A DNA stretch of 64,000 nucleotides from Candidatus Moraniibacteriota bacterium (GTDB lineage: Bacteria; Patescibacteriota; Minisyncoccia; Moranbacterales; UBA1568): positions 5,565-69,564 of the forward strand of contig JBATLQ010000045.1 of assembly GCA_049289395.1 (NCBI GenBank), written 5' to 3'. Position numbers and translations under genes: made by a program. Below the pieces are notes generated by a model, which worked only from the letters and a program-made list of their open reading frames with translations, was not told the DNA's origin and did not search any database. This document shows positions 1 through 56,994 of this stretch, piece after piece (position 1 is the first letter of the stretch; the number at the start of each line of letters is the position of its first letter).

Positions 1-1642
1 CATAGACACTTTGTTGGCAGTCGGAACGATAATTGACAGCTCTCCGTCAACACTAATTGACGCCGCTACGCCCTTGGGGAGAATAGCGACATTGAGATCG
101 GGGACATCGACTGGAGAACGAGCAAAGACATACTTGGCATAGTCCTTCTCGAAGGTAAACTCGAGGCGTTCGTAATCACCGCTCTGATTGACGACGGAGA
201 GGACTACATAGCGTGGCCCAGCCTTTGCTACGATGACAGTGATGCCATCCAGCTCGGGGGCTCGGGTAATCGCACATGCCTTGCCACCAAAGGGAACAAT
301 GAGAAATGTCGCCCCGAGCGCATCCTGCACTCCGACACCATCGAACCACTTCGTTGAATTCCGCAATGCCCCCCAGGTGTTTCCGGAAGACAAAAGCGGC
401 GTATTGAACATCGTGAGCACGAGTTCGGTGATACCACGATCACTCACAGCGAACAGTCGATCAGCAGACCGGAACAATCCATGGGCCTTGAGTGCGAAAG
501 AGAGCTCCATCGTCTTTCCCGATGCAGCCTCGACATACTTGAACCCAAGCACGCCATTCTCGATCGTACCGACGAGCCATCCCCTGTCAACCTTCACCAC
601 TTCGACATCGCGGGTCTTAACCACGCCAATAGTTTTCTTCATGGTGAGTTCGACAAGCGAACCATCAGCACACTGCACGACACCGCATGGCCAGACCCGA
701 AGAACAGGATTGCCAGTGGGAGCGTACAACTTCTCGAAGGCGAGTGAGCCCGTCGCGGTACTGACCACACGGAGAACGCGTGCCGCCTGCGCAACCTGTG
801 TCCCCACTTGAAGTGGTGATGGCGGAATGGAACGCTCACCGTGTTGAAACGCGGCCTCGTACCAGGAAAGTAGTGGTGTGGGAATACATGAGAAATCGCG
901 CACTGCCCTATTGAGAGTCACTCCAGGAGTGAAGACCGATTTATTTGCCTTCATTCTTTCGAGAAACTCGACCGGCTTGTAGCCCTGGAGCGTTCCTTTG
1001 TACGGGTGAGTCCCTGTGAAGAGCTGAAATGTAACAACCCCCCAAGCAAACCAGTCGCTTTCAACTGAGACCAGCTTGGTATGCCAATCGCGAATCGAAG
1101 GCATCTTGGCTACCGTAGGAGGAATTTGCCCTCCAAGCACCCACGAGTCGACATCAATCACCCTTGGTGAAGGTTTCGCCCTATCACCAAAGTTGACCAG
1201 CCAATTGAGTTCATTGGCATCGACCATAATCGCATTCGCCGCATGCGCATAGCGCACCGTATCATGCATACCACCTGCGAGAATCCTCGCCGACTCATCC
1301 GTGAAGCTTTCGCGTTGACGGAAATCATTCGTGAACACCCGCGACATCGGCTCACCTGCCGCAAAGGGCATGTAATAGCCAATGGGTTCACCGGAAGCCG
1401 CATCGCTAGCGATACCCTGCGGACCGACGATCGTCATATGCTTGATGAGTGCAAGCTGGCGGATCTTCTCGATCATGCCACGCTGCTTCATCTTGCCTGC
1501 GTTGATGTAAATCTTCACAATGGTGTCGCCAGTGCGATAGATGATGCCTTCACCACCCTGAGCCACATAATCATCGGGTCGGAGGGTGAAGGTTCCGCGT
1601 CCCTCAAGTGCTACTTTGCGAGTCTTGGTTTGAGTTGCCATG
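1..1642 (-). CDS. Ser/Thr protein kinase (TerY-P triad type); start at 1642, 3' end runs off window
   Basis: No in-window stop, so absent from ORF track. Manual translation from ATG (plus cat 1640-1642, GGAGAT RBS) gives MATQTKTRKV... with kinase-like motifs: G-rich loop QGGEGIIY, VKIY lysine, catalytic-loop-like HAANAIMVDANELNW, DVDSW and SDWFAWGVVTFQLFTG. Overlaps PP2C gene by 39 nt. Confidence 0.55.
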
Positions 1643-2545
1643 GATATCTCCTTGTTCAATCGGTTCGATCTCGACATGGATCACTGCATACGCAATGTCA
1701 TCCATCGGTCCTTTACCTTGGTTGCAGAAGTCCTTGAGTGCACGAATCATCCGGCGCTTCACGAATACGCCCTTCGTAGTCTTGAAGGAGAGGAGTGCGA
1801 TGACGACATCCTTCCAGTCGACGCCATCGACACGCAACACGCCATCGGTAAAGACAGCAATCACATCAATGTAATCTGTCAATGTTTCCTTGCTGATCGA
1901 TTGAGTGATGCCTCGCATACCATCGATAACAGCATGAGCCACCGTACCGCGGCAAACGAATTCTTTGCTGATGGGATCATAACTCCAATGCTCCTCGAAC
2001 AGAGCAGGGGTCGTCGGGTCGCCGTGCTCGCGAACATAGCCTGCCCCACCCGACTCTTCGCGATACTGTGGATAGAACGGCACCTTACCCCAATCGTATC
2101 GGAATATCGACACTGAACCATCTCGTGCCTTCGTAGCAATCACGCCATCCCCGACAAGGTGAATCACTCCTCCTTCTCTGGTGGCAAATGCGTAGCCACA
2201 GGTCGCCAGCATGTCATCTCGTGCCAGACCGAGTGCATGGCGCACCGTACCAAGTACGATACGCTGTTGTACGCCAACTTCAGTAACGACACCATGTTCA
2301 CCCGTATCCGATGAGAAATTGATATTGTCATGCCGGTCATAATAGGCACGGATTGCGGCGATAGAACCGAATGTGAGCACGCGTGCACCCATATCGGTCT
2401 CTCCGCCAGCAGAACACCCGTCCGAAATGACGGCACAGGCCATCCCATCCTCATACATCGAGAGCGCGTGATCCTGACAAGGCTTCCCGCTCCCGACATG
2501 CTCGCGTCCGATACTAAAGTGGTGGTCTGCAGAAAGTCTGATCAT
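1604..2545 (-). CDS. PP2C-family Ser/Thr protein phosphatase
   Basis: 313-aa ORF; metal-binding Asp-rich motifs (VISDGCSAGGETDMGAR, VFTDGV) typical of PP2C; strong SD AGGGAGGAGA upstream of ATG. Confidence 0.6.
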   Translation of the reverse strand: MIRLSADHHFSIGREHVGSGKPCQDHALSMYEDGMACAVISDGCSAGGETDMGARVLTFGSIAAIRAYYDRHDNINFSSDTGEHGVVTEVGVQQRIVLGTVRHALGLARDDMLATCGYAFATREGGVIHLVGDGVIATKARDGSVSIFRYDWGKVPFYPQYREESGGAGYVREHGDPTTPALFEEHWSYDPISKEFVCRGTVAHAVIDGMRGITQSISKETLTDYIDVIAVFTDGVLRVDGVDWKDVVIALLSFKTTKGVFVKRRMIRALKDFCNQGKGPMDDIAYAVIHVEIEPIEQGDIHGNSNQDSQSST

Positions 2546-2626
2546 TTGAATCTCCTCCCTCCGAATGAAAGAAAAAAGGGCAACGATTGACTCGCTGCCC
2601 CAGGTTGCTTGATGCCTCGCGCGCGA

Positions 2627-3385
2627 CTAGATTGTCGCGGCGATATTCTGACTCGGACCACCGGTACCGATCGCCTGCGATTGGCTCGAAATTGACTGAT
2701 CGATGAAGGCCCCCAGCTTGGCCAACTTGGCCGGGGTTGCCTCACCTGCATCGACATACTGCGTCATACCGGCCTCGGCATGAAATGTCTCGAGCGCCCG
2801 CTTGACACCAGACTCCATCGTATTGATGCCGATGAGAATCGAGATCATCGATTCGAGCTTCTCGCCCGTGACCGACTGCTCGAGCTCTTGGCGTACCATG
2901 TGCATGGTGGCGACCGAAGCGTTCTCACCGCCATCGGTGATGATGAAGGCAATGCCGTTGACGCCGAATTCCTGTTCGGTGAGTTCTTCGCCATACTTGT
3001 TCATCGCACCGACCCCGGAGTAGACCGCGTCGCAAAGCGGCGTCATGCCACCCGGATCCAAATCCGGGTAGGCGGCGACATCAATCTCGGCGAGGGGCTT
3101 GAAGCCATGAACTTCCTTCACACCGTTCGGGTACTTGTCCGAAAAGTAGATGACCCGCAGGAGCAGATTGTCACTCCGCGGCGACTTTTTGCAAGCAAGC
3201 ACAGCGGCTTCGAGCATCTTGCCCAGCTCGACCTTGAAACGAGCGGTCGAACCAGTCTCGTCCACCGCGATGGTGGCGAGGGTGTACTCGGATGCGCCGA
3301 GCGCGTCGAGCCGAGTTCCGCTGAAGCTGAAATTTCCAGCCAGCCGGTGTTGTTGCATATTGTCATCGTTCATCAAACGGGGCAT
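2627..3385 (-). CDS. von Willebrand factor A (vWA) domain protein, TerY-like
   Basis: 252 aa; MIDAS-like VDETGST near N-term and FIITDGGEN motif; AAGGAGAT RBS; sits directly upstream of PP2C and kinase genes. Confidence 0.6.
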   Translation of the reverse strand: MPRLMNDDNMQQHRLAGNFSFSGTRLDALGASEYTLATIAVDETGSTARFKVELGKMLEAAVLACKKSPRSDNLLLRVIYFSDKYPNGVKEVHGFKPLAEIDVAAYPDLDPGGMTPLCDAVYSGVGAMNKYGEELTEQEFGVNGIAFIITDGGENASVATMHMVRQELEQSVTGEKLESMISILIGINTMESGVKRALETFHAEAGMTQYVDAGEATPAKLAKLGAFIDQSISSQSQAIGTGGPSQNIAATI

Positions 3386-3428
3386 GTTGATCTCCTTGTT
3401 TCGGTTGGTTTGGGTGACGAATCACTGC

Positions 3429-4259
3429 TTAGCGCAGGAAATCGTCGGCGGTGGTGAGCGTCATGCCCTGAGACTGCATCGACTGCAGCCAGGCTTGGGC
3501 GATAGTCGGAAAATCCGGCGTACCCGGTCCCTGAGGAACCGGATGAGTGCAATCGGTGATGATGTGGAACTTCCTGATGTGTTCATCACCGATGTATTGC
3601 GCGATCTGATTGACCGTCCGCAGAACACAGTGCGACAGGGCTTCGCCGGCAACACCGATGATGTCGGCCTCGCGCATGACCTCAAGGAGACCGGTATTGA
3701 GCTGGGTTGACGGATCTTCGGGATCAGGAACTTCAGCCATGAGAGCACCGAAGTGTTCGGTGAACACATTGGTACCCTTGGTGACATAGTTCACATTGGC
3801 AAACTCCTTGCGCTCCCAAGCCTCGAGGGCGGCGAACAGATTCGCCTGCACGGCCGCGCCGGGCGTGCCGATGAGGCAGTGGTCCGGCCAGATGAGGTGA
3901 GCGTAGTTGCCCGGCGTGCTTTCCAGGGTACGACAGTACTCGAGAAGACGCTTGCGAAACGCGGGGTTACGCGGCGACCAGACGCCAGCCTCGATATCCT
4001 TGGCGAAGATGAGCGTGAACGGGTTCGGCATATTGCCGTCCTGGTCGCGCCACATGCCACGGTGCGAAACATCGATCACGCGGTGCGAATCGAGCGTCAC
4101 ATGAATGTCATCGAGCTTAGGACCGACCCGCCGGATCAGCCCGGCCAGACGATCCATGTCGGCATTAGCGCCGGGCACGGGAAGCGTCGAACTCGGGGAG
4201 TCCATGAAGTCGTTCTGGGGATCGATGATCATGAGGTGAACCTTCAGATTTTTTGACAT
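3429..4259 (-). CDS. isochorismatase-family cysteine hydrolase (nicotinamidase-like)
   Basis: N-terminal LMIIDPQNDF motif characteristic of isochorismatase/nicotinamidase fold; start chosen at MSKNLKV with GGAG RBS. Confidence 0.55.
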   Translation of the reverse strand: MSKNLKVHLMIIDPQNDFMDSPSSTLPVPGANADMDRLAGLIRRVGPKLDDIHVTLDSHRVIDVSHRGMWRDQDGNMPNPFTLIFAKDIEAGVWSPRNPAFRKRLLEYCRTLESTPGNYAHLIWPDHCLIGTPGAAVQANLFAALEAWERKEFANVNYVTKGTNVFTEHFGALMAEVPDPEDPSTQLNTGLLEVMREADIIGVAGEALSHCVLRTVNQIAQYIGDEHIRKFHIITDCTHPVPQGPGTPDFPTIAQAWLQSMQSQGMTLTTADDFLR

Positions 4260-4652
4260 GCTGAGATACTCCTGGGTTAATTGACATTGATATATCAGGA
4301 ACTTCGGGTGTCGAAACTCGCTCGTGATGAGTGAATTCCGACGATTTTCCTTCATTCCTATTGTTAAACAGCGTCCCAATAGCTGTAAAGCCTGGGGCAC
4401 TGTCTTACAAGGTGTTCCTTGAAAAACACTGCTCCGCGCTTTACTTTATGCACAACTACATCAACCTGAGAATCCAATCCACAACTCGCCCCTTCAGAGA
4501 AGGATGACATTACCATCTATGCAATATATTGTCAACCCCTGTTCCAGTTGTTCCATCACCCATTTTATAAAATTCTTCGCCAGCCCTTCTTTATACCCAT
4601 CCCACTACTAAGTGTAGTATATACACTATATATTTTCTGTCAAGGGAAACAT

Positions 4653-16789: not shown

Positions 16790-16817
16790 TACAGGGGTTG
16801 AACCCCTGTTTTTTGCG
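16790..16817 (+). terminator. intrinsic terminator
   Basis: CAGGGGTT-GA-AACCCCTG followed by TTTTTTG. Confidence 0.7.
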
Positions 16818-16970
16818 TATGATTCTTCATCTCTCTTTCCCACTCATTCTTTTCTCAAAATATGCTAAAATGAATGAAAAGAATTGCAAAAAAAATTTCC
16901 TCATCTCTATTATCCAACTTCTCACTATCTCTCCTAAACTCTCTCCTCTCAACTCTAATCTCTTCTCCCT

Positions 16971-19900
16971 ATGGTTCAAGTCATCCAAGGCACACAAAAC
17001 GACGATCTCTCGAAACAATCGAGTGAGCTCGATGAGCAACTCCAGAAAATAAAGACCGCTTCTATCGAAGAGGAGGCTTCGAGACTCGCTTCCGAATGCG
17101 GTCTCGCCTATGCTGACCTCCATCTCTTCCCCATCCTCGCCGAAGATATCCGGCTCGTGCCCGAAGAAGATGCAACCAAGTTGCAAATAGCCCTCTTCCA
17201 ACAAAGCGGGAAAACCGCTCATTTCGGCATGATAGAGCCTGGAAATGAGGACTCCCGAAATGCTATCACCAAGCTCTGCGAGAAAAATGATTGGAAGCCA
17301 GTGCTCCATGTCATCTCGCAGCCCTCTTTCGACAAGGCGATCGCTATCTATCACGATGCACCCCTCATCAAGAGCCTCGACCTCATGCGCGTCTCCCTCA
17401 CCGGAGCGGACCTCGAAAATTTCGAGAAGAATTTCGGCATGCTCCTCGACCTCGAACACACTTTCCAGAAGGTCTCCACCTCGCAGGTCATCGAAACTAT
17501 CCTCGCGGGGGCGAAACAAATGCGCGCGAGTGACATCCACCTCGAACCCGAAGAAGAGGCGACGCGCCTGCGCTACCGCATCGACGGCGTCCTCCAAGAC
17601 ATCGGAAAATTCCCGAAGTCCGTCTATCACCTCGCCACCTCCCGTATCAAGATGCTCGGGAAGATGCGACTCAATATCCGTGACCGTGCGCAGGACGGTC
17701 ATTTCTTCATCGACCTCGACGGGAAGCGCATCGACATCCGCGTGAACAGCATCCCCGGAAAATACGGCGAGAATATCAACATGCGACTCCTCTCCGCTGA
17801 TAGTCTCGTCGCCAAGGTAGAAGAACTCGGACTGCGCGGTCTCGCCTACGATGCCGTCCGTTCGGAAATCGGGAAGCCCCACGGCATGATTCTCAATACC
17901 GGACCGACCGGCTCCGGCAAGACGACCACCCTCTATACCCTCCTCGGTCAGATGAACGAACCCGGGAACAAGATCATCACCATCGAGGATCCGATCGAAT
18001 ACTCACTGAAGGGCATCGTCCAGACCGAAGTCGCCAAGGGTGGTCAATACACCTTCGCAGACGGCCTGCGCGCCATCGTTCGTCAGGATCCCGACATCAT
18101 CCTCGTCGGTGAGATTCGCGATGAAGAAACCGCTGACATCGCCGTGAACGCCGCCCTCACCGGACATCTCGTCCTCTCCACCCTCCATGCGAACAGTGCC
18201 TCCGCCGCCGTCCCCCGTCTCCTCGAACTCGGCATGAAACGAGAAATGATCACTTCATCCGTCAATTGTTTCATCGCGCAGAGGCTCGTCCGCGTTCTCT
18301 GTGATACTTGCAAAACCTCCTACGAACCCGCGAGAGAAACCGTCGATTCACTGAAAGAGCTTATCGCGATCATCTCTCCGAAATCGAAAGTAGACATTCC
18401 GAAAGAAATCCCCGTGCTCTGGAAATCCGTCGGCTGTCCCTCATGCAATATGACCGGATTCCGCGGCAGGAAGGGTATCTTCGAAGTCCTCCTCATGTCT
18501 CAGCCCGTGACGCAGGTCATCAATGACCTCGGCACCGAAGACGCGATACTCCGCACCGCCCTCGAAGACGGTATGGTGACTATGACGCAGGACGGGATCC
18601 TCAAATCGATCGAGGGTCTCACCACGCTCGAAGAAGTGTGGCGCGTCGCGGATCAAGCCGACATCCTCCGTGATATCTACAATGAACTCATGCCGAGCGC
18701 GCTCTCTCGCTCCTCGGTCATACCAACGCCACTCCTCGAAAAGGTCAAGGCACATCTCGGCAACTTCACTGATTTCTCCGCGTTCACGAAAGAGCTCCCT
18801 CAGAACGAATTCTTCCGTGCTATTTTCGCTGCGGCACTGCTCCTCCGTGCTGGCGACATCCACCTGGAGCCGACCGATACCGAAGTGCTCGTCAGGCTCC
18901 GCATCGATGGCATCCTCCAAACTGTCACCACTTTCCCGAAAAATAATTACCCGGCGATCCTCGGTGAAGTAAAACTCTGGGCCGGACTGAAGTCAGGAGA
19001 GCAAGCGGGCGTCGTCGATGGACGATTCTCTATCTCCATCGAAGAACCATTTGAGAATATTACCAATGTGCAGACCGACATCCGCCTCTCCATCATCCTC
19101 GGCGGTTTCGGTGAGACATCTGTCATGCGACTCCTCAGTAAGAATGCGGTGAAACTCGAACTCTCTTCCCTCCATATCCGCAAAGAAAATCTCGCGCGCA
19201 TCGAGGCCGCGATAAAGAAGCCGAATGGCATGATCCTCAATACCGGACCAACTGGCTCCGGCAAGACGACGACGCTCTACAGTATTCTTTCGGGACTCAA
19301 CAAACCCGAAGTGAAGATTATCACCGTCGAAGATCCGATCGAATACCAAATGCCCGGCATACTCCAAACTCAGGTGAACAATGAACAAGGCTATTCCTTC
19401 GCGCAGGCACTCCGTGCACTCCTCCGTCAAAATCCTGACATCATGATGATCGGTGAAATCCGCGATGAAGAGACCGCCCAGATTGCCGTGCAAGCCGCTA
19501 TCACGGGACACCTCGTCCTCTCCACTCTCCATGCGAACTCTGCCGCCGGTGCTATCCCCCGCATGCTCAATATGGGCGTCACCGGAGACGACCTCGCCAA
19601 TGCCGGGAACTGCTTCATCGCACAGAGACTCGTGCGACATCTCTGCGAGAACTGTCGCGAAGCAGTCACGCCGACTACAGAAGAGGCGACACTCATCGAA
19701 AACTATCTGAGTAAAATCACGCCAGCATCCGGTATCGAAAAGCCAAGCGCCGAAAAAATCTACCAAGCGAGGGGTTGCGAGAAATGTAACGGCACAGGAT
19801 ACACCGGACAAATCGTTCTCTCCGAAGCACTCACCGTCGATCAGTCCATCGAGGAACTCATCTCGCACAACGCACTCGCTTCTGAAATCGAAGCGAAGGC

Positions 19901-20000
19901 AATCGAAGGTGGTATGGTCAGCCTCGCTCAAGACGGCATCCTCGCCGCCCTCGAAGGTCGCACCACCCTCGCCGAAGTCGCCCGCGTGACGGAGGAGTAA
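16971..20000 (+). CDS. pilB: type IV pilus/T2SS assembly ATPase PilB/GspE, tandem-duplicated fusion (two complete ATPase cores)
   Basis: 1009 aa; two Walker A LNTGPTGSGKTTTLY (nt ~17895 and ~19240), two Walker B DIILVGEIRDEETA/DIMMIGEIRDEETA, two His boxes GHLVLSTLHAN, two tetra-Cys clusters; one N-terminal T2SSE_N-like domain. Confidence 0.85.
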   Translation: MVQVIQGTQNDDLSKQSSELDEQLQKIKTASIEEEASRLASECGLAYADLHLFPILAEDIRLVPEEDATKLQIALFQQSGKTAHFGMIEPGNEDSRNAITKLCEKNDWKPVLHVISQPSFDKAIAIYHDAPLIKSLDLMRVSLTGADLENFEKNFGMLLDLEHTFQKVSTSQVIETILAGAKQMRASDIHLEPEEEATRLRYRIDGVLQDIGKFPKSVYHLATSRIKMLGKMRLNIRDRAQDGHFFIDLDGKRIDIRVNSIPGKYGENINMRLLSADSLVAKVEELGLRGLAYDAVRSEIGKPHGMILNTGPTGSGKTTTLYTLLGQMNEPGNKIITIEDPIEYSLKGIVQTEVAKGGQYTFADGLRAIVRQDPDIILVGEIRDEETADIAVNAALTGHLVLSTLHANSASAAVPRLLELGMKREMITSSVNCFIAQRLVRVLCDTCKTSYEPARETVDSLKELIAIISPKSKVDIPKEIPVLWKSVGCPSCNMTGFRGRKGIFEVLLMSQPVTQVINDLGTEDAILRTALEDGMVTMTQDGILKSIEGLTTLEEVWRVADQADILRDIYNELMPSALSRSSVIPTPLLEKVKAHLGNFTDFSAFTKELPQNEFFRAIFAAALLLRAGDIHLEPTDTEVLVRLRIDGILQTVTTFPKNNYPAILGEVKLWAGLKSGEQAGVVDGRFSISIEEPFENITNVQTDIRLSIILGGFGETSVMRLLSKNAVKLELSSLHIRKENLARIEAAIKKPNGMILNTGPTGSGKTTTLYSILSGLNKPEVKIITVEDPIEYQMPGILQTQVNNEQGYSFAQALRALLRQNPDIMMIGEIRDEETAQIAVQAAITGHLVLSTLHANSAAGAIPRMLNMGVTGDDLANAGNCFIAQRLVRHLCENCREAVTPTTEEATLIENYLSKITPASGIEKPSAEKIYQARGCEKCNGTGYTGQIVLSEALTVDQSIEELISHNALASEIEAKAIEGGMVSLAQDGILAALEGRTTLAEVARVTEE

Positions 20001-20039
20001 GGCAAGAGAGCCTAGGGCTCTTAGAGAATTTAGAGCTTT

Positions 20040-20230
20040 TAGGAACAAAAAAAAGAGACTTCATCACGAAGCCTCTTTTAATTGTCTGCAAGAGAGGGGA
20101 TAAAATGAAACCAAAAAGGAGCGAGAGCGGTCGTTCCCCTTTTTGAGGGGTGCGACCGCTGTTTCCAAAAAGTAAATTTGAGAAACCAAAAGAGACTTCG
20201 TGATGAAGCCTCTTTTACTTATAATTTACA
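20040..20230. repeat. composite repeat region: two inverted hairpin copies flanking REP-like copy C (20121-20175)
   Basis: aaaagagacttcATCACgaagcctctttt (20050-20080) and aaaagagacttcGTGATgaagcctctttt (20188-20216), loops mutually reverse-complementary; core GCGGTCGTTCCCCTTTTTGAGGGGTGCGACCGCTG between. Confidence 0.6.
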
Positions 20231-20251
20231 AATAAAAAAAGGAGGCTCGTT

Positions 20252-20601
20252 TTAAAAGCCTCCATTCACTTCGTCCCGGCGCGATTTACGACACCGAGAA
20301 GCGGTGCCCGATGCTGTCTCGTCAGTGAGCTTGCTCAAAACGACGAAGCTACCCACCGGAATGCCAATCCTCAACTGTTCGCGAGGAAGGGTCAGGATCA
20401 CCCCGCCGAATTCACCTTCATCCTCGGGTTCCACAAACTCGAGAGTCACAGCATTCCCGAAGCGCTCAAAGAATTCGCCTTCGTCCAGGTCTACAGGCGC
20501 AATCCGCGAAGCATCCAGTACGACCGGACCATTCCCGCCTGCATCTTGTTCGATGCTGACGGCATCCGTTTCCAGCAAGCCCATTCGTTCCAACATACAC
20601 T
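20252..20601 (-). CDS. small acidic hypothetical protein (~116 aa)
   Basis: start MKCMLERMG with strong SD (AGGAGGG); listed 195-aa ORF is an upstream extension through a structured leader. Confidence 0.45.
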
Positions 20602-20846
20602 TCATGATGCTACCCTCCTTCGTGGTTGAACAAAAAAATAGAAACCCAGTCGAACTGAAGACAATCCACAGACATAGGAGCCCACGGGAAGGATCAGCGT
20701 CGAGGTATGGCCCAGCCGAAACCAGCCCACCCGATCTTGACAAAAAGATCCCATAACTGAAGGGAAAAGATAGTGCCCTCCAGCTGTCTTCAGTTAGACT
20801 GGATTTCCATTTGAAATGCAATCGAAACAAACCCACCACATTTTCA
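20602..20846 (-). promoter_or_regulatory. structured ~245-nt 5' leader (candidate cis-regulatory RNA)
   Basis: 17-bp closing stem CAGTCGAACTGAAGACA (20647-20663) / TGTCTTCAGTTAGACTG (20785-20801) enclosing 121 nt with internal GATCTT-gacaaa-AAGATC hairpin; U-run before RBS on minus strand. Confidence 0.3.
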
Positions 20847-20860
20847 AAATACGACCCTGT

Positions 20861-20889
20861 ATACTAGCATAGCTTTGATTTTATGTCAA
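20861..20889 (-). promoter_or_regulatory. sigma70-like promoter (minus) TTGACA-17-TAGTAT
   Basis: plus atacta 20861-20866 and tgtcaa 20884-20889; 17-nt spacer. Confidence 0.5.
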
Positions 20890-20977
20890 CCCCGTTTCAA
20901 ATTTCATCAAAAAACATGCACTTTTGGCTTATAAAAGGCATAATACAATGAATCACACAATAGATACCAATCATTAT

Positions 20978-21006
20978 TTGAAATCGGGGTCAACAGGTGC
21001 TAAAAT
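20978..21006 (+). promoter_or_regulatory. sigma70-like promoter for ruvB TTGAAA-17-TAAAAT
   Basis: TTGAAA 20978-20983, 17-nt spacer, TAAAAT 21001-21006; ~95 nt upstream of ruvB ATG. Confidence 0.5.
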
Positions 21007-21100
21007 AGCGGTATCAAGGTATATTTTCCCCTTATTTTCAGGTATTTTTTCTCTTATCTCTAAAAACTCTAAGAGCCCTAAACCCTAAGTCTCTATTGTC

Positions 21101-26675: not shown

Positions 26676-28112
26676 ATGTTTGAATTTTTCGCGAAAAGTA
26701 GGAAGCTCCTCGGCATGAACGCGCGCAATCTCGGGTATGTGCGCTCTTTCAACAGAAAGCGTGGCATGCGCATCGCTGATCACAAACTCCTCTGCAAACG
26801 CATTCTCGCGAAAAACAATCTGCCCGTATCGACGCTCATCGCGAAAATCCATACGACAGAGGAGCTCGAGACTTTCGATTGGAATGCTCTCCCAAATAGC
26901 TTTGTGCTGAAACCAAATCGCGGCTTCGGCGGTGAAGGGATCCTCGTCGTCTATGGCAAGAAACGATCCGATCCTGCCCGCAATGCTTCGCATAGCGATG
27001 CAGGCGGGGCATGGGTGAAGGCCGACGGCTCCATCGTCACCATCGATGATATCAAGACTCATATCCGCAACATTCTCGATGGTTCATTCTCCCTCTCCAA
27101 TACTCCCGATTCCGCGTTTTTCGAAGAGCGACTCAAACTTCTCAAGCTCTTCAAGCCCTACGCATTCAAAGGCATCCCCGATATCCGCGTGATTGTTTTC
27201 AATAAAATACCCATCATGGCGATGCTCCGTCTCCCAACGCGTGCCTCCGATGGCAAGGCGAATCTCCAACAAGGCGCTATCGGACTCGGCATCGATATGG
27301 CGACCGGCACCACGACGACCGCCATCCAGGGGAAGGGCTCCATCATCGAATACGCACCCGGGACGAGACTCCCGCTCTCCGGTATCAAGATCCCCTATTG
27401 GAAAAAAATCCTCACCATGTCCGTCCAAGCACAGGAAATTTCCGGTCTCGGTTTTCTCGGAGCGGATATCGCGATCGATCGCGACCTTGGCCCCGTCATC
27501 CTCGAGCTCAACGCGCGCCCCGGACTCTCCATACAACTCGCGAATCTCTCCGGGCTGAAGGAGCGCCTCGATCGCGTGAAGGGATTGAAAATAAAAACCG
27601 TGGAGAAGGGTATCCGTGTCGGCATGGATCTCTTCGGCGGTGAGATCGAGGAAGAACTGGAAGAAATTTCCGGCCGTCGCGTCATCGGATGTATCGAAAA
27701 GGTGAAGCTGATTGGAAAAGACGGAAAGGAAATCGAGGTCGAGGCAAAAATCGATACCGGTGCCGATTCAACTTCGATCGATACCGAACTCGCGAAAAAG
27801 CTTGGTTTCTCCGATGTACTAGAGTTTTTTGAAACTATCCCGGAACCTAAAACAGACAACCAGGATGATATACGAAAAATGTCTGACGCCTACGACATAA
27901 GATATAAAAATGCTCACCCAGACCTCCGGGCTATCGTCTTCGCTCGCTCCGCGAATGGACTCAGCATGCGCCCAAAAGTAGAAGTATCACTCATCATAGA
28001 TACCGTCGAGATTTCCGCTCGCACCACCATCATCGATCGATCACGCCTCGAATACCCCGTAATCATTGGAAGAAAAAATCTCTCTAAATTTCTTGTTGAT
28101 GTAAATAAATAA
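26676..28112 (+). CDS. ATP-grasp amidoligase (RimK-related) fused to C-terminal retropepsin-like (DUF785/RimK-associated protease-like) domain
   Basis: 478 aa; ATP-grasp C-terminal motif ILELNARPGLS; C-terminal region with AKIDTGADSTSID and LIIDTVEIS Asp-Thr-Gly-like motifs. Confidence 0.55.
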   Translation: MFEFFAKSRKLLGMNARNLGYVRSFNRKRGMRIADHKLLCKRILAKNNLPVSTLIAKIHTTEELETFDWNALPNSFVLKPNRGFGGEGILVVYGKKRSDPARNASHSDAGGAWVKADGSIVTIDDIKTHIRNILDGSFSLSNTPDSAFFEERLKLLKLFKPYAFKGIPDIRVIVFNKIPIMAMLRLPTRASDGKANLQQGAIGLGIDMATGTTTTAIQGKGSIIEYAPGTRLPLSGIKIPYWKKILTMSVQAQEISGLGFLGADIAIDRDLGPVILELNARPGLSIQLANLSGLKERLDRVKGLKIKTVEKGIRVGMDLFGGEIEEELEEISGRRVIGCIEKVKLIGKDGKEIEVEAKIDTGADSTSIDTELAKKLGFSDVLEFFETIPEPKTDNQDDIRKMSDAYDIRYKNAHPDLRAIVFARSANGLSMRPKVEVSLIIDTVEISARTTIIDRSRLEYPVIIGRKNLSKFLVDVNK

Positions 28113-28120
28113 AAAAACTT

Positions 28121-29062
28121 ATGACAAAAAATTCCCTCATTATCATCAGAGAGGCTGAACACATCGGCCTCAAGGTAGAAATTATTTCCGACAAAAAAAA
28201 CCTTTTTGTCATTCATGGAAAAAACAAGTCTCTCACTGTGTGTGAACTATTTTCCATAACACTCGATCCTGCTGGCGAAGCTTACCGACTCTCTAAAGAC
28301 AAGGTCCTGACCTACCTTCTTTGGGAGCGAGCCAATATACCATTTCCAAAGTATTATCACTTCAAGAATCACGCCGACTTTCAAGAGAAATGCCACAATA
28401 TTCACTTTGAATACCCGCTCATCCTCAAAGAAGGCGGTGGTTCAAAAAGCATTAATGTCCATATGGATATTCAATCGATACATCAACTAAAAAAATCAGC
28501 CGCCAGCTATACAAAGGAGTTTCTCGCTCAACAAATGATCATCGGGAAAGAATACCGGCTCCTCCTCCACCAAGGGAGCCTCCTTGGTGCCCTCCTTCTC
28601 ATTCATCCGCATATCATCGGGGATGGAGAGCATACCATACATGAGCTCATCGAGATGGCAAATCACAATAAAGAAAAGAAGCTTGTTTTGGATAAAAATT
28701 CACTTGCCATACTTCAAAACGATGGCCTCTCCCCAGAAAGTATTCCTCAAAAAAATAAAAAGATTTTTCTCCAAAAAAACTCCCGCCTTTCCCAAGGGGG
28801 GGAATCACATGACTGCACTGACATCGTGCACCCAGAAATACTACGCTTGGCCAAAAAAGCTATTGAAGCAACCAACCTCGGTCTCGGTGGGCTCGACCTC
28901 ATCTGTGATGACATAACCCTCCCCCCAGCAAATCAAAAATTCATGTTCCTTGAAGTAAATACCTACCCTGATCTCAGTATCCACTATGAGCCCACTCACG
29001 GCTCCCCCCAGCCAGTCGCCAAACTTATTCTTGAAAATATTTTCGATGCCAACGCACAATAA
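28121..29062 (+). CDS. ATP-grasp family ligase
   Basis: 313 aa; C-terminal FLEVNTYPDLSIHYEP ATP-grasp motif; AT-rich gene. Confidence 0.5.
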   Translation: MTKNSLIIIREAEHIGLKVEIISDKKNLFVIHGKNKSLTVCELFSITLDPAGEAYRLSKDKVLTYLLWERANIPFPKYYHFKNHADFQEKCHNIHFEYPLILKEGGGSKSINVHMDIQSIHQLKKSAASYTKEFLAQQMIIGKEYRLLLHQGSLLGALLLIHPHIIGDGEHTIHELIEMANHNKEKKLVLDKNSLAILQNDGLSPESIPQKNKKIFLQKNSRLSQGGESHDCTDIVHPEILRLAKKAIEATNLGLGGLDLICDDITLPPANQKFMFLEVNTYPDLSIHYEPTHGSPQPVAKLILENIFDANAQ

Positions 29063-29101
29063 AAGCACTCGGAACGATTGATTTTAACACACCTTGTCAC
29101 T

Positions 29102-29983
29102 ATGCCAAAAAAACTACACTTTCTTATCATAATGGGAAAAACAGGCCCAAATCATATCGACATAATTAATGCAATCACTGACGCTGGGCACATAAGTCAT
29201 ACATTTAGCATCAACGATGCTACCATCAAAATTATTCAGGGAAAAGAAGTTGTATTTTTCCAAGAATACCCGCTCTCATTTTTCGACATCATTATACCGC
29301 GCACCATACAAACAAACCTCAGTCTCGGAAGATTTATACTCTGCCAAGCTAGGGCAGAACAATTTGTTCTTGATGAATGCATCGCACATCGTGATACCTT
29401 TGGGAAAATATCCCAAGGTAAAGCGCTCCTCGATAAAAAAATAAATCACCCAAAAACTATTTATACCGCAAATGCCGATGCTCTTCCCCTTATAATAAAC
29501 GCACTTTCATTCCCTTGTGTTGCAAAACCAGTATCAGGTCGACAAGGGGCTGGCGTAACACTCGTAAGAGACCAGAACGAAGCAATTAAAATTATTAAGG
29601 AACACGCTATGGGCTATCTCTTCCAAGAATACCTCCCAATTCAATTCGACTATCGGATATTCGTAGTTGGGGGAAAAGCAATTGGGGGGATACAAAGACA
29701 TATCTCTAAAAATGACTTCCGCACCAATGCCTCTGTTGGATCCGAGGTCACAAACACAAAAATGACAGCCGCCCTGCGCTCCACAGCGATTCAGGCCACA
29801 GCTGTTTTTGGGTACGACATTGCAGGAGTAGACATAGCCATTGTCAATGGGAGGCATTATGTTTTTGAAGTAAACCGCTCTCCTCAATGGCAAGCATTCA
29901 AAAAAGCAACTGGGATAAATCCTGCCAAACATATTATCGAGTATGCTATTAAAAAACATCATAAAAAACATCGAGCGGCTTGA
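29102..29983 (+). CDS. RimK-like alpha-L-glutamate ligase (ATP-grasp)
   Basis: CVAKPVSGRQGAGV, DYRIFVVGGKAIGGIQR, IAGVDIAIV and FEVNRSPQWQ match RimK-type motifs. Confidence 0.65.
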   Translation: MPKKLHFLIIMGKTGPNHIDIINAITDAGHISHTFSINDATIKIIQGKEVVFFQEYPLSFFDIIIPRTIQTNLSLGRFILCQARAEQFVLDECIAHRDTFGKISQGKALLDKKINHPKTIYTANADALPLIINALSFPCVAKPVSGRQGAGVTLVRDQNEAIKIIKEHAMGYLFQEYLPIQFDYRIFVVGGKAIGGIQRHISKNDFRTNASVGSEVTNTKMTAALRSTAIQATAVFGYDIAGVDIAIVNGRHYVFEVNRSPQWQAFKKATGINPAKHIIEYAIKKHHKKHRAA

Positions 29984-32714: not shown

Positions 32715-33599
32715 CTATCGCTTGAAGTCCGCACTGATTTTCCAAATACCTTTTTCACGGAATGCTGGGATCGTCTGATGCCTTGCCGCATTCGATATCC
32801 CTGACGCAGGCACATCATGCTTCTTCGCGTATTGAGCAAGAGTAATGATATCACCACCCTTCATATAGGTAATTCTTTTGTTCATCGATTCCATGAGAGC
32901 AAGCGTCACTACTCGCTCCATGGAGCTCGTATCACCGTCATTTCGATACTCTCCAAATGTTTTGTAATATTTCGATTTTTCCTTATCCCGAATAATAATC
33001 GATGGAAGTCCGAGTTGAAACATCTGATAATTCATGAGCACCCGACCAATGCGACCATTCCCATCGCAAAACGGATGGATTGTCTCGAAATCCAAATGGA
33101 ACTTCGCGATCTTATCCAAAAAATACGCGTCAATGTTTCCGGAGTATTCCAGAAGAAGCGAGCCGATCATATGTTCGACGCGCTCCGGTGCCGGTGCCAC
33201 ATGTGTCCCCACGCGGACATACTCTCCGGTCTTGCGAAATCGTCCCGCATACTCATCATTGATTCCGCCGAGGAGCATCTGATGGAGGAAGAGCATGAGC
33301 TCCTTATCAACACTCTTTTCCTGAGACTTGGTCCGGATATAATTCATAACCCGTGCCAAATTCTTCGCCTCGAAAATTTCACGGACACTGACATCCCGAG
33401 ACACCTCCATTTCCAAGAGAATCTTCTCCGTTTCCCGAAGCGTCAGCGTCGAATTCTCGATAGCATTCGAATTGTAGACACTCTCTGGAATTTCCGCTTC
33501 ATCCAAGAGGACAAGCAAGGACTCCTTCCCTTTGCGCAAGGTATCATATTCGTTCTTCAGTACCTGAAGACGCTTCCTGATATGTGCTGATGTAGCCAT
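32715..33599 (-). CDS. Fic-family protein (AMPylase/ Fic-DOC)
   Basis: 294 aa; canonical Fic motif HPFCDGNGRIGR. Confidence 0.8.
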   Translation of the reverse strand: MATSAHIRKRLQVLKNEYDTLRKGKESLLVLLDEAEIPESVYNSNAIENSTLTLRETEKILLEMEVSRDVSVREIFEAKNLARVMNYIRTKSQEKSVDKELMLFLHQMLLGGINDEYAGRFRKTGEYVRVGTHVAPAPERVEHMIGSLLLEYSGNIDAYFLDKIAKFHLDFETIHPFCDGNGRIGRVLMNYQMFQLGLPSIIIRDKEKSKYYKTFGEYRNDGDTSSMERVVTLALMESMNKRITYMKGGDIITLAQYAKKHDVPASGISNAARHQTIPAFREKGIWKISADFKR

Positions 33600-36895: not shown

Positions 36896-38887
36896 TTATC
36901 CTTTTGAGGTGATAGCCTCCTTCTTGAGACTTAGAATCCTATTCACAACCTTTTCGAGAGACGCACTGCTTTCCCCTGCTGCTTTTGCGCTAGTTATAAT
37001 ATCAGTAACTATATTCGGATTCTTTATTGCGTGTTTCTTCTTTGTTACTCCATACTTTTTCTGACATTCCACAAGAATCCTTTCAAATTCAACAGTGCCG
37101 ATTTCCTCACAAAGAGTGCTTTCAAGTTTGTCTTTAAAGCACGAAAATTTATCTTCAATATATGCTGGCCATTCCTCCTCAATACTACCGACCAATCTGA
37201 GCAATTTTTTATTCTCATCAGGATTCGCCTTTCCATCTGCTTTTCCACACAACTCACACGCTCCAGATGTCTCGCCTTTTCCATAATCGCCATCCCAAAC
37301 TATATATGTCGGTATTCCTAATTTTGTGAAAATTATGTACGGTCTATCTATATTCGTTTTTCCTCCACAAGGAATTATAGAAAATCCATCCCCCTCCAAT
37401 TCGTGCCCCATTGCTTTTGCGGTACCCAATATAGCCGCCCTATCATCTTCACCCTCAACAAGAATATTCGCATCAGCAAAAAATCCCTCATTCATCCAAG
37501 GCGTCATTATGGCGTGAAGCCTGGGAATCAAACTGGCTCCAGTATACTGTTGTCCGCGCTTCCCGTCAGCTTCCCAGCTAGCTAAAGCAACTTCATCTAG
37601 TGTCGTATGAATAACCTTTGTTATTTTCGGTTTCTCCACCTCGTTTACTAACTTACGAAAAAGCCTTATCTGGTCAATCCTATCGATGCCCACAAAATGA
37701 GGAGAGTGAGTACAATATATAATTTGAGTGTTATCGGCTACTCCTGGCATTTTTCCGTCTGCTAACTGTCTTAGTATTTTTGCCAAATGTCTCTGTCTAT
37801 TCGGATGCTGATAAATTTCTGGCTCCTCGATTGCCAAAATAAGCGTGGGTAAATCCGTTTCAGTTACTCCTTCATCGGTCTTTGCACTCTTAACTTGTTC
37901 CATTGCCAAATGCTGAAGTAGGGTCAAAATAAATGCTCGCTGTAGCCCGTGCCCGGTTTTTTCAACTGACGACTCAAATCCGTCTTCAATCAGCTTTATA
38001 TCAGCTTGTGGCATAGGCATAGTAATGCCGGCAAGTGGAAGCCAATTCAATCCAACTTGAGCATTTGGAACATAAATCTTCATCGTTTCAGTCATCTGTT
38101 TTTCTAGAACCTTCAATTCAGTAAGCTTTTCAGGATCCATTATTTCCTTATACTTTTCCTCGGTCTTATTTTTCAATTTAACATACTCCTCCTTTCTCAC
38201 AAGAACACTTCTTACAACCAAATCCATCAAGCGAGAAAACGTAGAGCTTTTTCCATCTTCAATATCAATACCCGCATTACGAACAGCAGGTATAAAGAGA
38301 AACTGCGAAAACTTTCCCAGATAACCCTTCGCCACGCTCTTAAAACCGAAAAATTGTCCGTCATCTCTCATACGAACACATTGTGTACGATTCTCATTCT
38401 CCCATTTATCCAACTCAATTACAGTTGTCTGATTCTTCCAATCCGGCAATCTCTGATATTTTTCATTTTTTTTTAATTCAACATATTTCTCTTTCTTGTC
38501 TCTCGCTGAAGAAGCATTCCTCACTGAAGCGAAATCTGGATTCTGCAAACTTGCACCGTGATACTTAAAACTCGGTTTACCATCAGTCCAATCAATTACA
38601 AGCTCAATAGTTAATTTGTCGTCCTGTAAATAAGAACCAAAAAGACGTTTTGCTTCTTCTGAAAGCTTTTTATATGTAACGGCTACGACTATAGGCGATG
38701 ATGTATCCTTATTATAATAATCATCCTGTTTAATGCTTTGAGAAAAAGCATAAAATATCTCAAGCGCCTTCAGGAAAGTCGACTTTCCTGTCCCATTTGC
38801 CCCAACCAATGCCGTCAGATCCTCCAAATAAACTTCTTCATCCAATAGCGATCTATAATTTTTAATTAAAACAGATTCAATCAACAT
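36896..38887 (-). CDS. OLD-family ATP-dependent nuclease (ABC-type ATPase + C-terminal Toprim)
   Basis: 663 aa; Walker A LVGANGTGKST, Walker B LILAIEEPEIYQHP, H-loop IIYCTHSPHF; C-terminal Toprim motifs ILVEGEDD and IVWDGDYGKGE. Confidence 0.7.
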   Translation of the reverse strand: MLIESVLIKNYRSLLDEEVYLEDLTALVGANGTGKSTFLKALEIFYAFSQSIKQDDYYNKDTSSPIVVAVTYKKLSEEAKRLFGSYLQDDKLTIELVIDWTDGKPSFKYHGASLQNPDFASVRNASSARDKKEKYVELKKNEKYQRLPDWKNQTTVIELDKWENENRTQCVRMRDDGQFFGFKSVAKGYLGKFSQFLFIPAVRNAGIDIEDGKSSTFSRLMDLVVRSVLVRKEEYVKLKNKTEEKYKEIMDPEKLTELKVLEKQMTETMKIYVPNAQVGLNWLPLAGITMPMPQADIKLIEDGFESSVEKTGHGLQRAFILTLLQHLAMEQVKSAKTDEGVTETDLPTLILAIEEPEIYQHPNRQRHLAKILRQLADGKMPGVADNTQIIYCTHSPHFVGIDRIDQIRLFRKLVNEVEKPKITKVIHTTLDEVALASWEADGKRGQQYTGASLIPRLHAIMTPWMNEGFFADANILVEGEDDRAAILGTAKAMGHELEGDGFSIIPCGGKTNIDRPYIIFTKLGIPTYIVWDGDYGKGETSGACELCGKADGKANPDENKKLLRLVGSIEEEWPAYIEDKFSCFKDKLESTLCEEIGTVEFERILVECQKKYGVTKKKHAIKNPNIVTDIITSAKAAGESSASLEKVVNRILSLKKEAITSKG

Positions 38888-40371: not shown

Positions 40372-41139
40372 CTATGTCAAACGATACTGTCCATAACCAA
40401 CAAACTCCAGATAACCCTTATTCCTCAAAATCTGTAACTGTTGCCTTATTTTAGGTCTTATATTTTTGTTTTCAGGATGAATTATAGATAAATCGTACTC
40501 GAAAGCATACATATCCTGTAGGGTAAATTTCTTTTGATTGAGTGAATCAATACAATTCATAATATCCAAGATCCACCCTTTGCTATCCGATTTTTTAATT
40601 TTTTTCAAAAATAATGTCTTCTGCCATTTTTCCAGTACGCTCTTTTTATCCGTCTCTTTCCCATTTTCTACATAGAATATTTGTCCAGCCTTTGGAATCT
40701 TTGAGAATAAAATATTCGAGCCAATCCAGCCAGCGCGTCTGGCATTTTCTCTGAGTGGTTTCCTTTTTTCAATAATCTCGGAGATAAAAAAATGTTTCGG
40801 TATAACAAAAAAATCATACACCTTTGAGGCTTCAGCTATATACCCCATAAAAAAGAAATTTGGTTTTTCTGATGAATTGATTCTTTTGATCATTTGAGAA
40901 TAGGCTCCGGCGGAAACCTTTTTACCAATTTTCCCATTTTTAGATTTTAACTCAAAGTCTTCAACACATGTTTTACAATAAAAATCAGCAACTGGTTTAT
41001 TATTACCATAATTGTAAATACCATTGCCACAATTCGGACAATAAATCTCATGAAGCACCCATGCCTCACTTAAAACACGAGCTTTTTGAGAAACACTCCT
41101 ATACTGAATCGCTAATTTCGTATCAAAAAATAAATTCAT
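40372..41139 (-). CDS. DpnI-like (Dam-replacing family) methyl-directed restriction endonuclease
   Basis: 255 aa; SQKARVLSEAWVLHEIYCPNCGN, ADFYCKTCVEDFELKSK (PD-ExK-like with Zn ribbon), NFFFMGY, RRAGWIGSNI and C-terminal winged-helix-like IRQQLQILRNKGYLEF, as remembered for DpnI. Confidence 0.55.
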   Translation of the reverse strand: MNLFFDTKLAIQYRSVSQKARVLSEAWVLHEIYCPNCGNGIYNYGNNKPVADFYCKTCVEDFELKSKNGKIGKKVSAGAYSQMIKRINSSEKPNFFFMGYIAEASKVYDFFVIPKHFFISEIIEKRKPLRENARRAGWIGSNILFSKIPKAGQIFYVENGKETDKKSVLEKWQKTLFLKKIKKSDSKGWILDIMNCIDSLNQKKFTLQDMYAFEYDLSIIHPENKNIRPKIRQQLQILRNKGYLEFVGYGQYRLT

Positions 41140-42732: not shown

Positions 42733-42790
42733 GGTCGCGAGGAAACCCGCGCCCATCAAAATGGAGTCTCCTTGGGAGGCTCTTTTTTGA
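42733..42790 (+). ncRNA. candidate ~55-nt small RNA (promoter-to-terminator unit), antisense to 3' end of DUF3800 gene
   Basis: promoter above; terminator hairpin GAGUCUCC-UUG-GGAGGCUC (one G.U) then UUUUUU at 42765-42790; a GCGAGG/CCCGCG 5' hairpin. Confidence 0.3.
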
Positions 42791-46875: not shown

Positions 46876-47015
46876 AGGGAATACAAGGGAATGAAATATA
46901 GGTAAATATATCATGACGGCACAATTCTATCGAGTGGGGCGGTGCATATCCGGTGTATAAGTAGGGAGGATGCGTGTGTCTGCCCGCATTGCTACGCAAA
47001 GCGTTGCGGGCGGGA

Positions 47016-56934: not shown

Positions 56935-56994
56935 AGTGTTTTGCACTTAGTATACAACAAAAAAAAAATCCCGACGATACCCTTCATACTGAAG

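Follow-up and report, generated by a model that had tools for sequence, protein, structure and literature searches.

Motor ATPases of the PilB/GspE type have been studied as homohexamers. The building block of the PilB ring is formed by two neighbours, the N2 domain (N2D) of one chain being rigidly packed on the C-terminal domain (CTD) of the next; the nucleotide lies between N2D and CTD, and arginine, glutamate, threonine and histidine residues pass its state between units (PMC5424180). GspE, or EpsE, of Vibrio (1P9R, 4KSR, 4PHT) is likewise a hexamer of N2D:CTD construction units made from single-core chains. In the PulE6:PulF3 model each PulF protomer binds two ATPase N2Ds via Cyto1 and Cyto2 (PMC10790770), and since these are duplicated domains of one protomer, alternate ATPase positions are already non-equivalent in the canonical machines. 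Crystal symmetry and models are still the ground on which two questions are argued: in what order the ring positions turn over ATP, and how a six-fold motor is coupled to a platform that is a trimer or a dimer of duplicated domains. Here we describe a gene of this family whose product carries two complete ATPase cores in one chain. It lies in a stretch of 64,000 nucleotides (the window) from a Candidatus Moraniibacteriota bacterium, positions 5,565 to 69,564 of the forward strand of contig JBATLQ010000045.1 (assembly GCA_049289395.1).

A sequence-only reading of the window had proposed that a single open reading frame (ORF) encodes two complete N2+CTD cores preceded by one T2SSE_N-like N1 domain, and both parts of the proposal were borne out. 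Pfam T2SSE (PF00437) matched the protein twice (721.5 bits in total against a cut-off of 24.9), best over residues 171-558 and a second time over residues 612-1005 approximately, and the N1/MshEN domain was present once only, ahead of both cores (Table 1). The first core (A) and the second (B) were 42% identical over 416 residues (E = 3e-117), far beyond chance, and each aligned end to end with the solved cores of GspE, PilB and PilF. There is hardly any doubt that the gene truly encodes a GspE/PilB-type ATPase with two complete cores in one chain.

The full-length AlphaFold2 model of the protein (mean predicted local distance difference test, pLDDT, 82.4; predicted template modelling score, pTM, 0.62) placed a long helix at residues 11-42, ahead of the N1 domain, and structured elements in the segment that connects the cores: a helix at 563-573, a low-confidence hinge at 575-579, a strand at 581-584 and helices at 586-595 and 599-608. 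Six residues at this junction were nearly invariant (Q562, L566, Y570, L573, M574 and L578). Superposed on the core chains of PilB from Geobacter metallireducens (5TSG, 5TSH, 6OLJ) and PilF from T. thermophilus (5IT5, 5OIU), the model gave template modelling (TM) scores of 0.90-0.92, indicating the same N2D+CTD fold in each core. PilB and PilF also share with each core the Walker A, Asp box, Walker B and His box motifs, the arginine sensors, the pore glutamate and the tetracysteine motif, and have an N-terminal domain of the MshEN/GSPII type. The window protein differs from them in having two cores per chain, with one N1 domain for the two, and in being encoded outside a pil operon. Thermus PilF repeats its own N-terminal GSPII domains, not the ATPase core. 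GspE/EpsE of Vibrio, which gave the best sequence match to core A, has the same domain order and zinc motif and differs in its single-core chain. Foldseek found no chain in the PDB that spans both cores; the matches were to single-core chains, with TMq at most 0.36.

The two-core build is not confined to the window. A search of 5.8 billion proteins yielded more than 115 two-core clusters, of 1003-1022 amino acids, drawn from assemblies at NCBI, JGI, ENA and Logan; each aligned with the query along its entire length, at 55-93% identity. Those with names are recorded as 'GspE/PulE family protein' of Candidatus Moranbacteria/Moraniibacteriota, Minisyncoccota or 'Patescibacteria group'. When one genome per GTDB species was scanned, 144 relatives were confirmed and the best 80 kept; all 80 matched the query over essentially its full length, most being metagenome-assembled genomes (MAGs) of Moranbacteria or the Parcubacteria group. 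The tandem duplication put forward in the earlier reading thus holds as a fused two-core protein, but it is neither recent nor peculiar to this genome, being shared by at least 80 species-level genomes. Selection on the protein was estimated against the 93%-identical homologue in locus L004 (dS about 0.8, unsaturated) as the ratio of nonsynonymous to synonymous substitution rates (dN/dS). This ratio was 0.009 for the N2D and 0.035 for the CTD of core A, 0.050 and 0.059 for the N2D and CTD of core B, and 0.146 for N1, the least constrained segment; the 48 codons of the connector gave dN = 0 and dS = 1.2. The two-core architecture is old and selectively maintained, and it is fixed in a clade of ultrasmall Patescibacteria made up of Moranbacteria and their Parcubacteria/Paceibacteria neighbours. 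Contigs carrying the gene include the nearly complete JBAQEZ010000003.1 (767 kb) and JAUSGT010000002.1 (636 kb). Many of the species-representative MAGs with this gene and gene order are titled 'uncultured Bdellovibrionales bacterium' and one 'Candidatus Bathyarchaeia archaeon' (loci L004, L005, L006, L013 and others, and L069); these titles are probably wrong labels or the result of contaminated bins.

Conservation of the catalytic residues was determined in an alignment of 117 two-core homologues. Invariant in core A were K317, E339, D340, E343, E381, H399, H406, the N2D arginines and the four cysteines, and in core B K765, E787, D788, E791, E829, H847, H854, the N2D arginines and the four cysteines. 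These results agree with the earlier statement that the second half keeps intact Walker motifs. McCallum et al. (2017) described T327, E357, R271, R286, T411, H413, H420, R455 and the pore residue E400 as key residues of Geobacter PilB (PMC5424180). Their counterparts, assigned by a constant numbering offset from the His box and not from a printed alignment, were invariant or nearly so in both cores, and the pore glutamates, E386 and E834, were at least 90% conserved. Since the counterparts of the PilB sensing and catalytic residues and the pore glutamate are kept in both, each core looks like a working ring position, and hydrolysis of ATP by both cores is very probable from their residue content and low dN/dS.

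Membership of the GspE/PilB/PilT superfamily follows from T2SSE matches above the gathering score and from the Walker A, Asp box, atypical Walker B and His box motifs and arginine sensors of both cores. The tetracysteine motif in both cores, together with N1, marks an ATPase of the assembly type as opposed to the retraction ATPase PilT. A fusion of PilB with PilT, that is of an extension and a retraction motor, was considered and rejected: both cores carry the tetracysteine motif, and the PilT_fam scores of the halves (190 and 156) are below the cut-off of 319. Assignment within the assembly group was less direct. The whole protein scored 800.5 with the PilB equivalog TIGR02538 (cut-off 675.65) and 860.2 with the GspE equivalog TIGR02533 (cut-off 630.25), but it passes both cut-offs because the scores of two cores add up; taken singly, N1 plus core A and core B scored 425.5 and 383.3 with the former, and the halves 444.5 and 424.1 with the latter. 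Core A was marginally closest to Vibrio GspE (306 bits) and core B to Thermus PilF. By its sequence the protein can safely be placed in the GspE/PilB assembly-ATPase group, and it is not demonstrably an orthologue of either GspE or PilB. The name 'PilB/GspE' used in the earlier reading is therefore right as to the type of the cores and overstated as either specific name, since the halves fall below both equivalog cut-offs. Automatic PilB or GspE names are unsafe for these two-core proteins, and naming by whole-sequence score can mislead for multi-core proteins.

An exhaustive HMMER search of 1.84 billion cluster representatives returned 14,832 proteins at an E value of 1e-30 or better. Among the best 150 of these there were only 13 two-core proteins of 978-1018 amino acids (P0025 and P0121-P0132) and one of different build (P0141, 1047 amino acids), the rest being single-core proteins or fragments. 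The proteins were cut into separate cores and a neighbour-joining tree, without support values, was computed. The second cores of the main family formed one clade that contained no sampled single-core protein, and the first cores clustered with the single-core proteins P0137, P0150, P0191 and P0182 from bacteria of the candidate phyla radiation (CPR). Two of these, P0150 and P0191 (560-565 amino acids), have the same N1 and core A-type sequence (44-47% identity, core A clade) and differ from the window protein in having neither the connector nor a second core. They also share its locus, in which a gene for a DHH-family protein precedes the ATPase gene, with tsaE upstream or ruvB downstream. 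These single-core, DHH-linked ATPases likely represent the ancestral state. Because the second cores form one clade and single-core relatives occupy the same locus, the simplest history is that such an ATPase gained a second core once, early in the lineage; an independent origin of every two-core protein was rejected for the main family, whose second cores are one clade.

Four other proteins are, like the window protein, covalent multiples of the GspE/PilB core (P0006, P0126, P0129 and P0141), and a separate origin is a possibility for the last three. In P0126 and P0129 the two cores are each other's closest relatives (69% and 53% identity, respectively), which points to either a separate duplication or gene conversion; P0126 is encoded at the same polA-tsaE locus. 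P0141, from an apparently unrelated and distant high-GC lineage, has no N1; in it two T2SSE cores are joined to two cytoplasmic T2SSF domains of the PilC type that have no membrane segments. P0006 (1460 amino acids; locus L003, 10001-14383, JGI 3300022698) was found on one contig only, at the same tsaE/DHH locus, and has three complete cores, all with intact Walker A, Walker B and His motifs, and the two-core-type connector twice. The N2D of its middle core resembles that of the last core (65-74% identity) and the CTD mostly that of the first (56-72%). This mosaic indicates that P0006 derives from copies of a two-core gene by unequal crossover; it is not an assembly duplication, since the repeated parts have diverged.

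How two-core chains would build a ring was considered from these data. The earlier reading had proposed a trimer of dimers or a double ring, which is a reasonable proposal. We lean, by a small measure, towards a single ring of three chains and six cores in which A and B alternate. Three chains would close one planar ring; one kind of N2D:CTD packing unit would be formed within the chain, from CTD-A, the connector and N2D-B, and the other between chains, from CTD-B and N2D-A. Such alternation would fit a trimeric, internally duplicated PilC/GspF platform in which Cyto1 and Cyto2 each sit on the N2D of a different ATPase subunit, and N2D-A and N2D-B, having diverged, would each be adapted to one of the two platform domains, so that motor and platform would pair 3:3 instead of 6:3. 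As proposed for PilB, the platform would then be rotated or raised as ATP is turned over around the ring, with insertion of pilins. The PulF trimer offers a parallel, since there too an internal duplication (Cyto1/Cyto2) gives a trimer with pseudo-sixfold character facing six N2Ds; it is a membrane platform and not an ATPase, so that the parallel is an analogy motivating the 3:3 model and not a homology.

Several observations favour the alternating trimer. The numbers of cores per chain that were seen (1, 2 and 3) are all divisors of 6. The N2D is the most diverged domain between the cores, A and B being 35% identical against 58-63% among orthologues, compared with 57% against 73% for the CTD core, and we count this for a trimer with platform specialisation. 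In the three-core P0006 the middle core combines N2D-B with CTD-A, so that only CTD-A:N2D-B and CTD-B:N2D-A contacts are kept when cores alternate in one plane; stacking, or an opposite polarity in the plane, would need interfaces that the parent protein never had. Also counted for the trimer were the PulE6:PulF3 model, with two N2Ds bound by each platform protomer, and the joining of two T2SSF-type domains to two cores in the unrelated P0141.

The strongest competitor is a stacked double ring of six chains, with six A cores in one hexameric ring and six B cores in a second ring beneath it. One ring would work on the platform; the other would have a regulatory role, supply a second power stroke or act as a scaffold for assembly. 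Tandem ATPase cores usually stack as two rings of six in KaiC and in the type II AAA+ proteins p97, NSF and ClpB, which have two nucleotide-binding cores per ring-forming chain like the window protein, although these are of different ATPase families. With its 48 residues and flexible hinge, the structured connector is long enough to reach a second tier; AlphaFold gave no confident docking of N2D-B on CTD-A (pTM 0.61); and six N1 domains, as well as truly homomeric N2D:CTD interfaces, would be retained in a hexamer. On the other hand, the pore and the N2D face engage the membrane platform in this family, so that a lower ring would be without a known partner, and core B still keeps E834 and all the inter-unit sensing residues under strong constraint. 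The N2D-B/CTD-A middle core of P0006 would, moreover, create a new homo-ring interface, and no stacked PilT/GspE-type rings were found among the solved structures matched. We regard stacking as rather unlikely.

Sequence features and gene neighbourhoods suggest that the two-core protein is probably the assembly motor of a type IV filament (pilus), the remaining parts of which would be encoded elsewhere in the genome. Type IV pilus parts have been reported as near-universal or widespread in CPR bacteria, which are also reported to be without the outer-membrane secretin component PilQ (PMC6744442), and such parts have been reported in two Moranbacteria bins (PMC9530719). At locus L069 the two-core gene is followed, 87 bp on, by the start of a gene for a 165-residue prepilin, which scored 33.8 bits with TIGR02532 (cut-off 16.3); when the window and all loci were scanned for prepilin motifs, this was the one genuine case. 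An N_methyl/Laminin_G_3 pilin-like gene comes next after the gene of the single-core relative P0182. The family features, these two pilin adjacencies and the reported pilus parts make a filament role the most likely one.

The window itself holds no pilC, pilT or pilin gene: tblastn found no second T2SSE homologue in the 64 kb, and no T2SSF, PilM or prepilin motif was found among the window ORFs scanned. The earlier remark that no separate pilT or pilC is seen there is thereby upheld. The lack of pilC and pilT nearby is typical of this clade of CPR ATPases, single-core members included, and for that reason says little about function; other PilB-like genes of CPR bacteria are dispersed as well. 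A secreted cysteine-rich protein encoded in the window at 55810-56946 (-) gave a weak match to PF18895 'T4SS_pilin' (E = 1e-4). Proteins of this PF18895 family also adjoin single-core PilB-like ATPases of CPR bacteria (L087, 4605-5819; L089, 5825-8911), six of them in a row at one locus.

Recruitment of the whole DHH-linked clade, single- and two-core, to a task other than a pilus motor appears unlikely to us. Candidate tasks would be the uptake and processing of DNA or nucleotides together with the NrnA-like DHH protein and repair genes, or secretion or signalling independent of a filament. The locus does lie among tsaE, polA, holA-like, ruvA/B/C, yebC and fpg genes, the DHH-family gene is tightly paired with the ATPase gene in 77 of 78 loci with no pil genes nearby, and the halves score below the GspE and PilB equivalog cut-offs. 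In addition, a full, canonical pil operon with a single-core ATPase of its own (P0143) exists in other small-genome bacteria, and P0143 falls outside the clade in the tree. Against recruitment stand the conserved N1, tetracysteine motif and pore residues, all typical of filament-assembly ATPases, and the prepilin-type genes next to clade members at L069 and P0182. The surrounding string of housekeeping genes has a conserved order, so that adjacency may be synteny and not an operon, a terminator-like hairpin and a promoter-like site part the DHH gene from the ATPase gene in the window, and the dispersal of other CPR PilB-like genes applies here too.

Less probable still is an arrangement in which a single core of the two does the motor work and its partner is a pseudo-subunit with a regulatory or structural role, which would give three active and three binding-only sites. 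Such partners exist in F1-ATPase, whose alpha subunits bind nucleotide and are non-catalytic. In distant members the rate of evolution is somewhat higher for core B than for core A, one core is degraded in some distant two-core proteins (the first Walker A of P0141 reads GPTGSGTT, and core 2 of P0128 is without the tetracysteine motif), and at eight positions, D373/N821 and H244/R685 among them, A and B have each fixed a residue of their own. The Walker A lysine, the catalytic glutamate, the Asp and His boxes and the arginine sensors are, however, invariant in both cores of all 117 members, and dN/dS is equally low in both. Finally, an artefact, a possibility raised in the earlier reading, in which errors of sequencing or assembly, or the collapse of a repeat, had fused two neighbouring pilB-like genes, has a negligible chance and was ruled out, because cores only 42% identical offer no repeat to collapse, the same uninterrupted ORF recurs in the more than 115 clusters and 80 species genomes, and the junction is under purifying selection, whereas a false join would not recur in independent assemblies.

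Taken together, the account of a two-core motor with a filament role and an alternating trimeric ring is in our judgement slightly favoured, and a number of points weigh against it. Neither half reaches the equivalog cut-off for GspE or PilB, so that the scores do not identify the type of system. In about 80 loci no pilC, pilM, pilT or pilD gene lay in the 10 kb before or the 10 kb after the ATPase gene, and only one of these loci has an adjacent pilin gene. Two PilC searches, one with the PilC of a pil operon at L095 and one with a profile of 16 Parcubacteria-type PilCs, gave no Moranbacteria-labelled match among the 120 listed for each and were uninformative. The intra-chain packing unit was not confidently predicted, the AlphaFold monomer of CTD-A, connector and N2D-B having a pTM of 0.61 (0.62 at full length) with pLDDT below 50 in the hinge. 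A trimer of A-B chains cannot have the true two-fold (C2) symmetry of crystallised PilB, since opposite ring positions would be A and B. The three-core argument depends on one protein from one metagenome contig, and the core tree was computed by neighbour-joining with no support values.

If the trimeric ring is correct, the window protein would be a natural covalently linked dimer of the PilB type, with an obligatory A-B-A-B-A-B order, 3:3 stoichiometry with PilC and N2D-A and N2D-B on different PilC domains; to this full description we give slightly less than an even chance. The three-core P0006 would then build the same ring as a 2x3 solution, filament assembly would not depend on strict C2-symmetric firing by subunits that are equivalent and opposite, and mutation of single positions at defined ring sites would be feasible in this family. 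Linked-subunit ClpX reportedly allowed such position-specific mutation for AAA+ motors. Joined, diverged and apparently catalytic cores fix which ring positions are equivalent; Walker mutations could be confined to every second position, and the stoichiometry could be read directly by mass measurement or electron cryomicroscopy. For the biology of CPR bacteria, the doubling is a clade-specific change in the motor of a surface appendage thought to be central to an episymbiotic lifestyle.

No tandem two-core PilB/GspE was described in the full-text literature covered, which included a PilB review and an archaeal type IV pilus census and leaves most subscription journals outside. The fold, the chemistry and the probable role are already familiar, and two-core proteins sit in public databases under generic names; the unfamiliar elements are the covalent doubling, its conservation across the clade, the derivative with three cores and the 3:3 coupling that would follow.

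Gene order around the ATPase gene was compared in 83 loci and is conserved as tsaE, DHH-like gene, ATPase, ruvB. The DHH-family gene, of about 380 codons, was counted over 78 loci and lies directly upstream on the same strand in 77, at a median gap of about 138 bp; it also precedes the single-core relatives. Among the 83 loci, tsaE was found on the opposite strand in 54 and ruvB downstream in 66, followed in about 60 by genes for a small membrane protein and a bPH_2 protein, and yebC, ruvC and polA were present in 44, 34 and 29. The DHH-like protein of the window has DCH in place of the DHH motif and ATE in place of the 'DTG' motif, and the family consensus keeps IDHH and has lost the first aspartate of motif I; the protein may be an altered or inactive phosphoesterase. 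Its pairing with the ATPase might reflect a functional link and could equally be conserved housekeeping synteny. The DHH-like gene was not adopted as an operon partner, given the conserved housekeeping gene order and the terminator- and promoter-like sites between the two genes. Because of these sites upstream and a strong hairpin after the stop codon, which is a possible bidirectional terminator (Table 1), the ATPase gene may be transcribed on its own.

Table 1. Positions in the window of the two-core ATPase gene, its domains and motifs, and other features
Feature	Residues or detail	Position	Strand	Basis
DHH-family protein, divergent NrnA-like	378 aa	15593..16729	+	Pfam DHH E = 1e-5, below cut-off
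Terminator-like hairpin after DHH-like gene		16791-16809		
Promoter-like site upstream of ATPase start	TTGCAA-18-TATTAT	16884..16913	+	consensus match only
Two-core GspE/PilB-family ATPase, complete ORF	1009 aa + stop codon	16971..20000	+	ATG start, uninterrupted
Single N1 domain (MshEN / T2SSE_N type)	aa 44-124	17100..17342	+	Pfam PF05157, 26.0 bits vs cut-off 23.1
Core A N2D	aa 165-280	17463..17810	+	invariant arginines R199, R201, R203, R257, R272
Core A CTD	aa 290-562	17838..18656	+	motifs and alignment to solved cores
Core A Walker A	GPTGSGKT, aa 311-318	17901-17924	+	motif search
Core A Asp box	aa 335-343	17973-17999	+	motif and alignment
Core A Walker B	aa 373-384 (GEIRDEET from aa 380)	18087-18122	+	motif search
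Core A His box	aa 398-406 (GHLVLSTLHAN from aa 398)	18162-18188	+	motif search
Core A tetracysteine	Cys 444/447/489/492	18300-18446	+	CxxC pairs at 444/489
Inter-core connector, structured	aa 563-610 (48 residues)	18657..18800	+	AlphaFold secondary structure and conservation
Core B N2D	aa 611-725	18801..19145	+	invariant R642, R644, R685, R705, R720
Core B CTD	aa 738-1009	19182..19997	+	motifs and alignment to solved cores
Core B Walker A	GPTGSGKT, aa 759-766	19245-19268	+	motif search
Core B Asp box	aa 783-791	19317-19343	+	motif and alignment
Core B Walker B	aa 821-832 (GEIRDEET from aa 828)	19431-19466	+	motif search
Core B His box	aa 846-854 (GHLVLSTLHAN from aa 846)	19506-19532	+	motif search
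Core B tetracysteine	Cys 892/895/936/939	19644-19787	+	CxxC pairs at 892/936
Hairpin just past ATPase stop codon	13-bp stem, A and T runs at flanks	20051..20079	.	consensus match only
Fic/DOC protein		32715-33599		low-GC stretch
OLD-family nuclease	AAA_15 and OLD TOPRIM domains	36896-38887		low-GC stretch
DpnI-type methyl-directed restriction enzyme		40372-41139		low-GC stretch
DUF3800 protein		42756-43565		low-GC stretch

The gap between the ATPase gene and ruvB (20001-21100) is 1.1 kb in the window, against a median of about 0.5 kb elsewhere. It contains a minus-strand ORF (20252-20605, or up to 20839) that has no family match and no homologue in the 83 loci, with a strong promoter-like site (20889-20861) on one side and, on the other, a terminator-like hairpin (20263-20241); at L069 the same gap holds the prepilin gene instead. 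Further downstream, three consecutive ATP-grasp genes (26676-29983, +) encode an ATPgrasp_ST protein with a C-terminal Zn_protease-like domain and then two RimK-like proteins. Related genomes have kept this set downstream of their ATPase locus, there with a gene for a 7TM_transglut protein ahead of it (L001).

Rfam and tRNA scans of the window, which comes from a CPR-type genome, gave no hits. The stretch of about 32.7-43.6 kb has a low GC content (0.33-0.42 against about 0.50 elsewhere) and looks like an acquired defence island; besides the genes listed in Table 1 it holds several ORFs without a family. Next to it are dnaN (44034-45185, -) and dnaA (45445-46914, -), and the GC skew changes from strongly negative to positive at about 44 kb; the surroundings, 43.5-47.6 kb, are probably the replication origin region. 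Genes resembling yidC and jag, recognised from their sequences only, follow at 47.6-48.8 kb. At the other end of the window, a block of higher GC (0.57; 1604-4400, -) contains two ORFs that match no Pfam family and, at 1604-2545, a gene for a PP2C-like phosphatase; the related loci hold no homologue of any of the three.

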